Shown: positions 43,039-47,499 of the stretch, in pieces
How positions within the stretch are numbered: position 1 is the first letter of the stretch
How the letters are laid out: the number at the start of each line of letters is the position of its first letter
Origin: Thermoanaerobaculia bacterium
GTDB taxonomy: Bacteria > Acidobacteriota > Thermoanaerobaculia > Multivoradales > Multivoraceae
NCBI GenBank assembly: GCA_963664405.1
Contig: OY761158.1
Coordinates: 5,184,001-5,248,000 of the forward strand
DNA length: 64,000 nucleotides
Direction of reading: 5' to 3'
Notes under the pieces: model-generated
The model's database searches: none
What the model saw: the letters and a program-made list of their open reading frames with translations, nothing else
Told to the model about the DNA's origin: nothing
Position numbers and translations under genes: made by a program

Positions 43039-43132
43039 CGGCCCCCTGAAGCGGCCTGTGACAGTGCCTCAACGAGCGGCGCGGCCGCATCACCACCCCG
43101 CGCACACTCCGGAACGGCTGCCGGAGGGACGC

Positions 43133-44204
43133 TTACTGCGCCCAGGGGACTTCGCAGGCTTCGCCGATGCGGATCTCTTTGGTGACGAAGGTGTTGCGGT
43201 GGGGGCCGGCACACCAGGAGGGCATTACCATCGAGTAGAGGCCGCCGCCGCCGGCCACCACGACGAGGATGTCTTCGGGGCGGGAGAAGCAGTGCACGTC
43301 CTTCTCGTCGCTGATGCCGCGTGCCGGTACGTAGCTTTGAATCTCGGCCGCCGAGAAACTGGTTCGCTCGTATAGCTCGCTGCAGATGCGCTTGCGGTCG
43401 TAGCCGGCGGCGAGAAGGAGGCCCGCGTGGTCGGGGTTGAGGACCACGGTCGCGGCGCCGCCACGGATCCAGAAGTTGTTCGATCCCGGGTTTGCCAGAC
43501 AGACGGCGAGAGATCTGAGCAGTCTCGACGGCGTTTCGGGGTCGTCGGCGTCGCTGACCGCGATGACCGAGTGCGGGGCTTCGGCCCCGATTACGGTCAC
43601 GGTGCTCGTTTCGGCTGAGTAGCCCAGAGCAACGTGGAAAGGCTCGAAGGGGCTCGCCGCCTCATCTTCGGCGAAGCAGTAGGTGAACTTTCCCGGGTGG
43701 CCGTGCACGGCCATATCTGATGTACCGGCTCGGCCGCCGCCGATATTGATCATCGACAGGCGCAGCGCGCGGCCGATCGAGGCGTTAGCGCGATTCCCGG
43801 GACCGAAGACGCCGTAGCCTCCGGATAGCGGCCCACAGACCTGGGCGGCGGGTCCGTTGACGATCAAGAGCGGCGCCGTGCAGTGGGTCGTCGCCTGCAT
43901 CTCGGTGAGGTCGAATCGAGGGTCGAGAACCGCTTCGATCGCTGCCACTACGATCGGCATGTGCTGGGGCAGACAGCCGGCCATGACCGCCGATGTGGCG
44001 ATGCGCTCGAGGGTCGCGGCGCCCCCACCTGGGCCCATCGAGCCGAGCTCCAGATCCGCTTGGTAGTCCGCTCGCCAAGACCAAGGACTGCACCAGATCC
44101 GGAGTCGGAATAACGACCGGCAGACCGTCGGTGCAGCCGAGCTCGTGAAGCAGTTCGAGGGCCTCGATGCCGGAGGAGGCTTCGAGTAGAGATCCTGTCG
44201 CCAT
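43133..44204 (-). pseudogene. UGSC-associated conserved protein (TDGLPV.PT family) with a +1 frameshift near 44060
   Basis: N-terminal GCTDGLPVVIPT (ORF starting 44204) continues as ATLERIATSAVMAGC..NRANASIGRALRL..G.PGK (ORF 43133-44038); removing one A restores LPADLELGSMGP; may be a sequencing error. Confidence 0.7.
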
Positions 44205-44213
44205 AGCGAAGGC

Positions 44214-44786
44214 TTAGGCGGTCACTTCGACCGGCGAAGCCTCGGCTCGAATCTGTCCTCTCAGCTCACCGCCCAGGGCGGTGACCAAGGTCGGGCCGAT
44301 CCTCTCGGCGAGGCGGCGCATAGCCTCTTTCCCGGTGCCCGCAACCGGATGCGGAAGCAAGAGGCGGGGTATGTCGGGCATGCCCGTGGCGCGTGCCACA
44401 AAGTCGCCTTGCTCTCGAAAGTCTTCGGTGACAAAGGCGACAACGGGGATACCCCGCCGGGCGAAAGCGATTCCGTCACGCACGGTGCCGGTAGTGCAGC
44501 TCCCTCAGTGACCCCAGGCAGTGACAACTACCTTGCATTCTTTGGCGATGCCATCGAGAAGCTGATCACTGGCCAAGGAGGACGCATTGCCCTTGTTGAA
44601 TCGCTTGCACTGCGCTGCGGGTAGGAGCTCGGCCAGCACTTCTTCGACCCGGTCGAGAAACGCCTCGGAGTCGGGGAACCCGTTGGCAAGCAGGCCGATC
44701 GTCGGGCTGCCGGCTAGATCGGCGCTGAGAGTGTAGGGCTCGGGGCTGGCGCCCGGCTCTGCTCGAGGGTCGAGGAATTGGATCAT
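44214..44786 (-). CDS. UGSC-family selenoprotein (190 aa, Sec at TGA 44505-44507)
   Basis: ORF 44505-44786 ends ...TAWGH-TGA and the same frame continues GSCTTGTVRDGIAF..GIPVV..T..F..PHPV to 44214, giving the UxxC motif H-U-G-S-C. Confidence 0.85.
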
Positions 44787-44843
44787 TGTGTAGCTCCCTG
44801 CTTCAATAGTACACGGGAGAGTGCACTGTCTGCAGCCCCATCG

Positions 44844-45917
44844 TCAGTAGTGGTTGATGATGTGAGTGGCGAAGTCGGCGAAGTTCTCTCTCGCGCTGGC
44901 CATCGGCGGGAGCAGGGTCACTTCTTTGAGGCCCGCTTCCTCGAGCTCGCGGAGCCTTGCGATGATCTCTTCCGGCGTCCCCACGAGTCCGCCGGAGGCG
45001 CGGATCAGCTCGGGCGTCATGAACTTCCGCTCGGCAGGGACCAGATAGGTGCAGTGACCTTCATGTACCCGCATATGGGGGTGCCCTTCGAGGGTCTCGG
45101 TGTAGGCCAGGTACTGTTCCCAGAGGTCTCGGATCTCCGGCCGGATGAAGCTGTCGGTGCCCCGCTGCTTGGCCAGCTCCCACCAGAAATGGAGTGCTGA
45201 GGAGACCATCGAGCCCACCTCGTCGATGACCCGGTCTGAGCGCAGATCCTCTCCCGGCCGCAGCACGCAGGCGAAGCTCAGAGCGGCGGTGTGGTAGCTG
45301 TCGTCGAGCTTCCTACCCGAGGCTTCCGCTCCAGCGGCCACGATTCCGAGGTTCTGCTGGAAGACGGCCGGCGGCTCGCCTCCTCCGGAGACGCGCCCGT
45401 CTCCATGGGCTCCGGCGATCCCCAGCGCCAACGGTCCATTCGCCGCTACATAGATCGGCACCGGGTTCGCAACGTTGACGAAGCCGAGCTCCTGATGGAG
45501 GAACTGGATGGGTCGAGTCACCCCGTCGAGCGTGTACTCGACTTCGTCGCCGCGGAGGAGTGCACGCACCACTCGTACATATTCACCAAAGGCCTTGGGC
45601 TTGACCGGGTCCATTCCCATCACCCGCATCGCGGTGTGGCCGGTGCCGATGCCGAGGAAGACCCGCCCCGGTGCGATCCGGTTGATGCTCGCGATCGAGT
45701 GCGCGGTGACCGGTGCGATCCGAGTTCCGGCGATCGCGACCCCTGTCCCCAGTCGAATGGTGGATGTGTGTTGGGCCGCCAGAGCCATGGTGGCGTAGCA
45801 GTCGGACCAGATCATCTGCGAGTCGGGAAACCAGGCGTTGTCGTAGCCGAGGCTCTCGACATAAGGGATCAGTTGCCAATCGTCGATTTTGGTGGCAACC
45901 ATCGCGCCGAACTTCAT
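44844..45917 (-). CDS. LLM-class flavin/F420-type oxidoreductase (Mer-like)
   Basis: AWFPDSQ, TSTIRLGTGV, PGRVFLGIGTG and PIYVAANGP; GGAGG RBS before MKFGAM. Confidence 0.9.
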   Translation of the reverse strand: MKFGAMVATKIDDWQLIPYVESLGYDNAWFPDSQMIWSDCYATMALAAQHTSTIRLGTGVAIAGTRIAPVTAHSIASINRIAPGRVFLGIGTGHTAMRVMGMDPVKPKAFGEYVRVVRALLRGDEVEYTLDGVTRPIQFLHQELGFVNVANPVPIYVAANGPLALGIAGAHGDGRVSGGGEPPAVFQQNLGIVAAGAEASGRKLDDSYHTAALSFACVLRPGEDLRSDRVIDEVGSMVSSALHFWWELAKQRGTDSFIRPEIRDLWEQYLAYTETLEGHPHMRVHEGHCTYLVPAERKFMTPELIRASGGLVGTPEEIIARLRELEEAGLKEVTLLPPMASARENFADFATHIINHY

Positions 45918-46080
45918 CGGGACCTCCTTGGAGAAGAGGACTGAGTGTAGCTCGACTTCGGGGCTTGCCGACGCTTTCGAAAATGATCCCCCTTTTCCTC
46001 CGCGGCTGGATATCATGGCGCTGCCTGGCCAGCGAGATTGCCTTCCCAGCTGGCTCCATCCCGAAAAAGAGCAGACTTCG

Positions 46081-47499
46081 ATGAGCGCCACCACCCGGCT
46101 CGAGAACCAGGGCCGCGCCGGTCAGCGCCTGGAGCAATTCCAGAGCAACCCGCGGCGTGCGCTGTGGACGCTGGCGCTGCCGATCATGATCGGGATGTCG
46201 ATCTACACCGCCTACATGATCGCCGACATGATCTTTGTCGGCATGCTCGGCCCTGATGCCCTCATCGCGGTTGCCTTCAACATGCCCCTGCTCTTCTTGG
46301 CGATGGGCGCAACCTTCGGTCTCGGCAGTGCGGTGACCGCGCTGATCGCCAGGGCGATCGGAGCCAAGGACGACCGAAGGGCCGACCTGGTCGCCCAGCA
46401 CTCGACCCTGGTCGGGGTGGGGATGACGGTCGTTTTCATCTCCATCGGCTTCGGCTACGGAGAGAAGCTACTGCTCGGGATCGGAGTGCCGCCCGACTTG
46501 CTGCCTCTCGCCTGGGAGTACTTCTCGGTGCTGGTGGCCGGCTTCGCCTTCCAGGTGCTTTCCATCCTCTTCCGCTCGATGTTCAGCGGCGAGGGCGAGG
46601 TCAAGCTGCCGGTGACGATCCAGGCCGTGGCGACGGTGGTCAATATCGTGCTCGATCCGATCTTCATTTTCGGGCTCGACATGGGAGTGCGGGGTGCGGC
46701 GGTGGCAACCGTGGTCACTCAGGCCGCTGTGATGTTGACCTTCGCCTGGCTTCTCTTCATCCGCAAGCGCGCTCACGTCGACCTCTCCTTCCGGGGCTTT
46801 CGTATTGACAGCGACATCGTTGGAGACCTGATTCGGATCGGCGCTCCCGCTTCGCTCTCTTTCGTGGTGATGGCCGCCGGGGGCACCGCCTTCAACAGGA
46901 TCCTGGTAGAGCGCTCGCCCGATGCGGTGGCGGCGTTCCAGATCGGGGGACGGGTCGACCACCTGGTCATATTGCCTCTGGTGGCGATGGCCTCGTCGTT
47001 GGTCACCCTGGTGGGCATGTTCTCCGGCGCCGGCCGACTCGACCTTGCCGAACAGGTCGTCCGTTACGCGATGGGACGAGGCTTGTTGCTCGCCATTGTG
47101 GCCTCGACGCTCTTTCTCGTGTTCGCCCCGTGGCTGGTGGCACCCTTCACCGACAGCGAGTCGATCCGGAGCTACGCGGTGCAGTATCTGCGCTTCGCTT
47201 CGCTCGTCTTTCCCGCTTTTCCGTTCTCGATCATGATCGGCCGCGCCCTTCAGGGTCTGGGTCACGGTACCCCGGAGCTGGTGTTGAGCCTGATGCGGGT
47301 GCTGTTGATCTCCGTCCCCTTGGCGGCGCTCGCCGTCTTTCGCTTCGGTCTCCCCATCCACTTTGTCTGGATGGCGATGATCATCGGCGGGTGGACGTCG
47401 GCCGTGGTCGCTCTGCAATGGTGGCGTCTTGCGATCCGGGCGGCGATCCGCGACGCCGGGGAACCGTTGTCGCCTCTCGTCGAAGTGCCGGTGGCTTGA
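46081..47499 (+). CDS. MATE-family efflux transporter
   Basis: LALPIMIG..ADMIFVGMLG and NIVLDPIFIFG.MGVRGAAVAT. Confidence 0.92.
   Translation: MSATTRLENQGRAGQRLEQFQSNPRRALWTLALPIMIGMSIYTAYMIADMIFVGMLGPDALIAVAFNMPLLFLAMGATFGLGSAVTALIARAIGAKDDRRADLVAQHSTLVGVGMTVVFISIGFGYGEKLLLGIGVPPDLLPLAWEYFSVLVAGFAFQVLSILFRSMFSGEGEVKLPVTIQAVATVVNIVLDPIFIFGLDMGVRGAAVATVVTQAAVMLTFAWLLFIRKRAHVDLSFRGFRIDSDIVGDLIRIGAPASLSFVVMAAGGTAFNRILVERSPDAVAAFQIGGRVDHLVILPLVAMASSLVTLVGMFSGAGRLDLAEQVVRYAMGRGLLLAIVASTLFLVFAPWLVAPFTDSESIRSYAVQYLRFASLVFPAFPFSIMIGRALQGLGHGTPELVLSLMRVLLISVPLAALAVFRFGLPIHFVWMAMIIGGWTSAVVALQWWRLAIRAAIRDAGEPLSPLVEVPVA

Follow-up and report, generated by a model that had tools for sequence, protein, structure and literature searches.

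Are two short open reading frames (ORFs), lying one behind the other in the same frame on the minus strand of a Thermoanaerobaculia genome, two genes, or are they a single selenoprotein gene in which a UGA is read as selenocysteine (Sec)? The question arises at positions 44214 to 44786 of the window, a term used here for the whole 64,000-nt stretch of DNA that was analyzed. A 93-aa ORF (44505..44786) ends there in TAWGH-TGA, and beyond it the frame stays open, starting with GGG AGC TGC ACT, through 96 codons up to a TAA. The original prediction, made from the letters of the sequence, was that the two ORFs form one gene of the UGSC family with Sec in a U-G-S-C redox motif, that the host decodes Sec, and that a hairpin downstream of the UGA acts as a bacterial SECIS.

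The family has been catalogued since 2008 as "UGSC-containing protein" by Zhang and Gladyshev, who counted 255 Sec forms and 21 Cys forms in the GOS data and placed UGSC among the most abundant predicted selenoproteins of aquatic metagenomes (PMC2398784). In their entries on the family, reviews of 2022 (PMC9312934) and 2026 (PMC13188914) list UGSC without a function. The passages on UGSC in these three papers give no function, and they say nothing about a partner protein beyond the note of a fusion in 2008 (PMC2398784, PMC13188914, PMC9312934).

One gene across an in-frame UGA

The features from which the analysis starts are the following.

44214..44786, minus strand: UGSC-family selenoprotein gene (predicted), ATG at 44784-44786 and TAA at 44214-44216, 190 codons plus stop, translated with TGA as U
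44505..44507, minus strand: in-frame UGA, codon 94, read as Sec on the comparison of orthologs, paralogs and fused homologs
44794..44798, minus strand: Shine-Dalgarno-like GGGAG, 7 nt 5' of the ATG, read directly from the sequence

With the TGA translated as U, the frame encodes 190 residues, and H-U-G-S-C-T occupies residues 93-98. Pfam gives one match to this product, PF24696 (UGSC), which covers residues 5-172 and crosses the TGA (E 1.4e-45; 156 bits, with a gathering cut-off of 25 bits). The match is near end-to-end, at profile positions 3-171 of 172. Because a single family profile extends across both sides of the TGA, the ORFs are not two unrelated ones. The read-through sequence also fits the NCBIfam profile NF041046 at positions 4-146 of 147 (112.4 bits, E 1.7e-32), a score below the 125-bit equivalog cut-off of that model. 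The Pfam match bears out the assignment to the UGSC family, and the gene in the window belongs to a diverged subfamily that the NCBI pipeline, using NF041046 alone, would leave unnamed. The U/C-G-S-C motif is present at its conserved column: U94, G95, S96 and C97 are invariant across 70 aligned sequences, and all ten family-invariant columns (P7, K65, U94, G95, S96, C97, D104, H146, P147 and A160) are retained.

Is the UGA itself conserved? Orthologs were collected at 80 loci from public genome contigs, with 48-64% identity and in records titled Acidobacteriota, Actinomycetota/Acidimicrobiia, Gammaproteobacteria/Pseudomonadales and Myxococcota. At the U column, TGA is present in every one of the 80 and Cys in none, and the frame stays open downstream. 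Together with the single PF24696 match, the retention of the TGA in 80/80 orthologs supports the claim that the two small ORFs are one gene. Cys forms come from another set of homologs, namely proteins in which a full-length UGSC domain is fused to the partner protein described below. Cys stands at the U column in 11/16 of these, and 9 of those 11 read C-G-S/N-C, so Cys homologs do align at the TGA, as anticipated. A residue other than Cys, which the original prediction would have counted against Sec, occurs in just the remaining 5/16 fusions; these are degenerate, with Ser, Ile or Ala there and the whole motif lost. The description of UGSC as a family with Sec or Cys at this position and no established function accordingly agrees with the 80/80 TGA codons, the 11/16 Cys fusions and the entries in the reviews.

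The UGA is also a regular feature of the family in close relatives. A search of 61 genomes (the window genome and 60 relatives) found a UGSC match in 37, the window genome included (same-family relatives with a UGSC match, 35/36). Among the matches listed for these 37 genomes, each has at least one in-frame TGA. The window genome has four UGSC genes, and each of the four has a single TGA, which falls on the U of U-G-S-C in the alignment. The other three genes are as follows.

G000:C1:1791168-1791662, minus strand: UGSC gene with one in-frame TGA
G000:C1:2234668-2235174, plus strand: UGSC gene with one in-frame TGA
G000:C1:5304755-5305249, plus strand: UGSC gene with one in-frame TGA

The copy at 2234668-2235174 has a C-terminal extension of ~100 residues, for a total of 280 aa.

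Probable selenocysteine decoding by the host

Can this organism insert Sec? The window genome, which is one contig of 6.78 Mb, was searched for the Sec machinery. Both selA (423 bits) and selB (340 bits) were found. A selD gene scored 362 bits, and a second selD-like gene scored 243 bits. The Rfam tRNA-Sec model matched at 72 bits, and ARAGORN called a tRNA-SeC with anticodon TCA. Each of these scores exceeds the cut-off of its model. With selA, selB, selC and selD all present, a full set of genes supports the expectation that the host decodes Sec. The better-scoring selD (G000:C1:388007-388930, plus strand) has one in-frame TGA, and its product is probably a Sec-containing SelD; the second selD-like gene, at 565727-566650, is without a TGA. 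TGA is at the same time the commonest stop in this genome, closing 2592/4866 open frames of at least 300 codons, which indicates that it is otherwise an ordinary stop here.

A presumed RNA signal fixed in sequence

What would tell the ribosome to read this UGA as Sec? A general bacterial SECIS model has been described in PMC9312934. The original prediction proposed two pairings after the UGA, GGGAGC with GCUUUC as a lower stem and CCGU with ACGG around a GCGUG loop as an upper one. Both pairings exist in the window, and the loop starts 24 nt after the UGA. In comparison with the orthologs, the two parts of this proposal fare differently. The upper CCGU/ACGG hairpin lies in an invariant stretch; the lower GGGAGC/GCUUUC stem is not conserved, being paired in 45.9% of cells across 78 orthologs, and it appears to be a property of the window sequence alone. 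When the whole proposed structure was scored across orthologs, none of the 500 shuffles scored lower. The presumed element is shorter.

44473..44491, minus strand: presumed SECIS core, nt +14 to +32 after the UGA

Positions +14 to +31 after the UGA are invariant in 78/78 distinct ortholog nucleotide sequences, and +32 is G in 77/78. At the level of codons, residues 99-104 (T-G-T-V-R-D) are each encoded by a single codon in 79 codon-aligned orthologs: five of these codons are fixed in 79/79 sequences, and the sixth is fixed in all 73 that have Thr. Every other conserved degenerate amino-acid column in this alignment uses 2-6 codons. When metagenome contigs were placed on the window, 44466-44510 was the sole part that drew extra matches from other organisms. 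The single-sequence fold of 44430-44510 is not unusual (z 0.76; 152/200 shuffles are at least as stable), so only the ortholog comparison speaks for an RNA signal. A search of Rfam with 44100-44900, at E up to 10, returned four chance-level rows and no SECIS family.

There are two possible folds of the core. In one, 4 bp (CCGU/ACGG) close a 5-nt loop; in the other, two 3-bp helices separated by a G.A mismatch close a 5-nt loop. The RNAalifold consensus is the 3+3-bp form, at -5.9 kcal/mol. No covariation was found in the hairpin across the 78 ortholog sequences because the stretch never varies, and the 4-bp and 3+3-bp forms are for that reason not distinguishable by covariation. On our reading of the alignment, the 3+3-bp form would explain six frozen wobble positions (four paired and two in the loop) and the 4-bp form would explain four. 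The three paralogs in the window genome have 7-8-bp hairpins that begin 11 nt after the UGA and carry G/U-rich loops.

The frozen stretch may have shaped the protein. Among residues 99-104, only D104 is invariant across the whole family, which suggests that T-G-T-V-R, fixed in this subfamily, may owe its constancy to the RNA and not to the protein. If so, the stretch shows cleanly how an RNA signal can constrain a protein sequence. It also offers a simple nucleotide signature for spotting members of the H-U-G-S-C-T-T-G-T-V-R-D subfamily.

A constant partner

UGSC genes do not stand alone. In 79/80 ortholog loci, a gene for a protein of ~357 aa lies directly downstream of UGSC, and the 80th locus stops at the contig end. 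In the window genome, a paralog of this partner, 33-41% identical and unbroken, lies directly upstream of each of the three UGSC paralogs. Four loci from Actinomycetota/Acidimicrobiales (L057, L060, L062 and L063) have two UGSC-partner pairs of different subfamilies within ~3 kb; one pair is of the D-U-G-S-C-S-S-C type with the partner upstream, and the other is of the H-U-G-S-C-T-T-G type with the partner downstream. The partner family itself is large, with 4609 representative clusters at E up to 0.001, and it has no name: sequence searches of Pfam, NCBIfam and the PDB with the partner gave no match (best PDB E 0.2). In the Protein Atlas, which was used for leads only, the partner falls in unnamed clusters; one automatic label reads "thioredoxin (fragment)", and in one cluster 41% of the members carry PF24696.

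The two proteins are also found as one. Among the best 150 of the 4609 partner representatives, 16 are full UGSC+partner fusions, and 20 have just the post-U part of UGSC ahead of the partner, the product that a gene caller would yield on restarting beyond a Sec codon. A further 3 of these 150 are partner+UGSC proteins that end exactly before U. These truncated database entries, and the two ORFs given by table 11 in the window, fit the expectation that standard gene callers split such genes. In the loci and proteins examined, UGSC thus appears always to adjoin, or to be fused to, the ~357-aa partner family. Two proteins show a different domain in UGSC's place: in P0067 and P0101, the partner is fused to an AhpC/TSA domain in one case and to a ferredoxin-thioredoxin-reductase beta domain in the other. 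Three proteins of 713-741 aa (P0013, P0015 and P0018) have partner-family matches in two or three stretches, without a Pfam domain, and probably arose by tandem duplication of the partner domain.

Other genes near the pair were considered as members of the same unit and rejected. A luciferase-like monooxygenase gene (44844-46094, minus strand) lies just upstream of UGSC on the same strand. As a third member it did not hold up, with such a gene in the 3-kb flanks of 9/80 ortholog loci, mostly downstream on the opposite strand. The glyoxalase, ADH-like and MATE neighbors recur at 0/80 ortholog loci.

The partner gene in the window strain

The partner gene beside the window UGSC gene is broken.

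43133..44204, minus strand: partner gene, no named family, split by a frameshift into ORFs 43785..44204 and 43133..44038
44060..44061, minus strand: extra base that breaks the partner gene, located by contig comparison

The partner ATG at 44204 lies nine bases past the UGSC stop. When the intact orthologs were compared with the window by tblastn, the gene aligned in two parts, and the reading frame changed between them at about 44064-44067; each of the 79/79 ortholog loci that reach the partner gave one unbroken tblastn piece. Is the break an assembly error? Contigs X1 and X4, from two studies, have 0 differences from the window over 43100-44800, and contigs X8 and X9, from two other studies and from relatives that are ~95.5% identical, have one letter fewer at 44060. 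From this agreement between two studies, and from the lack of the base in relatives, the one-base insertion is real in the window strain and not an assembly error, with the caveat that one of the two matching studies may be the assembly's own source. Among the sequencing runs listed for this DNA, none was of RNA. The window copy of the UGSC-partner pair may therefore be impaired. An ATG at 44038, with GGAG before it, could restart translation of the partner's last 301 residues. The window UGSC gene itself is undamaged in its start, its TGA, its RNA stretch and its ten family-invariant residues.

Predicted structures of the two proteins

An AlphaFold2 model of the UGSC protein, built from the 70-sequence alignment, has a pLDDT of 94 and a pTM of 0.89. 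It predicts a small domain of five beta/alpha units, flavodoxin- or Rossmann-like, in which U94 sits where strand 86-92 meets helix 95-110 (strand 3/helix 3). Among the rows listed, Foldseek matched only generic three-layer alpha/beta proteins (best E 2e-4, TM 0.45). In a VIA search, 427 chains scored Z of at least 8, the highest being 10.9, and the fold matches listed are flavodoxin-like, Rossmann-like and receiver-like. The PDB searched by sequence gave nothing for UGSC (best E 1.5). The text of the 2008 study suggests a likely thioredoxin-like fold for UGSC (PMC2398784), whereas the model here has five beta/alpha units with flavodoxin- or Rossmann-like matches, and there is no thioredoxin-fold entry among the Foldseek and VIA rows listed. 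The earlier suggestion is thus not borne out by the predicted model, as judged by the fold matches listed.

The partner model has a pLDDT of 88.7. Foldseek gave no match for it at E 0.001 or better, and the best VIA match (Z 5.8) covers residues 215-346 only, with no solved relative of weight. Among the invariant residues of the partner are the Cys of an A-V-M-A-G-C motif and charged residues elsewhere in the sequence.

How might the pair work?

In the mechanism that we propose, the UGA at 44505-44507 would be decoded as Sec by the host's SelA, SelB, SelD and tRNA-Sec together with the downstream RNA signal. SelB would bind the frozen stretch of 18-19 nt, at 14-32 nt after the UGA, and bring the Sec-tRNA to the UGA. 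In the finished protein, U94 and C97 would cycle between a selenol/thiol pair and a selenenyl-sulfide, and this pair would reduce a cysteine-based intermediate on the partner, passing electrons to the partner's conserved Cys. UGSC and the ~357-aa partner would then be the two parts of one enzyme. A redox relay from the selenol/thiol pair of UGSC to the partner is suggested only by gene order and fusions, and we regard it as somewhat better than an even prospect. Dedicated redoxin modules fused to peroxiredoxins or to methionine sulfoxide reductases offer an analogy for such a relay.

We lean modestly toward a joint reading of these observations, in which UGSC and its ~357-aa neighbor would make up a widespread and undescribed two-part selenoenzyme. 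A flavodoxin-like selenol/thiol module would feed electrons to a catalytic protein whose fold is without a solved relative, and the module would be evolutionarily interchangeable with peroxiredoxin-like and ferredoxin-thioredoxin-reductase-like domains. In the subfamily, an 18-nt element of fixed sequence, common to at least four phyla, would serve as the SECIS and may dictate T-G-T-V-R.

Alternative explanations

There are two other ways to account for the UGA. It could be a true stop, which would leave a nonsense pseudogene, or two small ORFs that have nothing to do with each other. Translation with table 11 does give two ORFs, TGA ends more frames in this genome than any other stop, and the local RNA fold is not significant by itself, but a true stop sits badly with one family profile that covers both halves, with TGA in 80/80 orthologs across several phyla and a frame open beyond it, with the complete Sec machinery in the genome, and with frozen synonymous sites right after the TGA. 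We consider a true stop extremely improbable. Reading of the UGA by a near-cognate tRNA (Trp or Cys), or under a reassigned code, is just as hard to credit: TGA terminates 2592/4866 long frames, homologs have Cys and not Trp at the column, selA, selB, selC and selD are present, selD itself has a TGA, and a position-specific conserved RNA stretch fits SelB-dependent decoding. The two short ORFs are thus very probably one intact gene for a UGSC-family selenoprotein, with Sec predicted at the UGA at 44505-44507.

A different doubt concerns the fate of this particular copy. The gene could be decodable with Sec and yet belong to a decaying UGSC-partner pair, in which case the window UGSC gene would be a remnant that is turning into a pseudogene, and its function would fall to the three other pairs in the genome. 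The insertion near 44060, seen in contigs of two studies and absent from 95.5%-identical relatives, speaks for such a history; the partner is unbroken in all 79 ortholog loci that reach it, and three other intact pairs are at hand in the genome. The UGSC gene, however, keeps its start, its TGA, its invariant RNA stretch and its ten family-invariant residues, a restart at the ATG at 44038 (with GGAG before it) makes a split partner conceivable, and the two matching studies are not fully independent, since one is possibly the source of the assembly. Decay of this copy is possible and, in our judgment, rather unlikely.

What are the practical implications of a Sec-containing UGSC gene with a constant partner? 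For annotation, two short ORFs should be replaced by one selenoprotein gene, and the following gene should be marked as frameshifted. For enzymology, the constant pairing or fusion of UGSC with one unnamed family points to what should be co-expressed when its substrate is sought.

Comparison with known systems

The product resembles the described UGSC family in its full-length profile match, its size, the U-G-S-C at the same column and the dominance of Sec forms (80/80 here). It differs in that the H-U-G-S-C-T-T-G-T-V-R-D subfamily of the window scores under the NF041046 cut-off. A fusion of UGSC with Unknown_1, a conserved domain of unknown function, is described from aquatic organisms in the 2008 study (PMC2398784). 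As described there, Unknown_1 is like the ~357-aa partner in being a conserved domain fused to UGSC; unlike that fusion, the window has two separate genes, with the partner frameshifted.

The hairpins of the window-genome paralogs, with 7-8-bp stems from 11 nt after the UGA, follow the classical arrangement. In the fdhF-type SECIS of E. coli, a hairpin inside the coding sequence lies a short, fixed distance after the UGA and presents G/U in a small apical loop. The window element differs from this type in its very short helix (4 bp, or 3+3 bp with a mismatch). It also sits 2-4 nt further from the UGA than the paralog hairpins, and it is fixed in sequence and not only in structure.

For the protein pair, selenoprotein B of the glycine and D-proline reductases (GrdB and PrdB) is a point of reference, with a U-x-x-C motif and a second, separately encoded catalytic protein with which it works. 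UGSC is similar in combining a U-x-x-C selenoprotein with a second protein, and the likeness is one of analogy only: the GrdB/PrdB Pfam family was not matched in the UGSC product in a scan up to E 0.1, in which PF24696 was the sole family. Compared with these systems, the present case stands out in three ways: the partner gene carries a frameshift, one genome has four UGSC-partner pairs, and within the subfamily the presumed SECIS stretch does not vary even in its codons.
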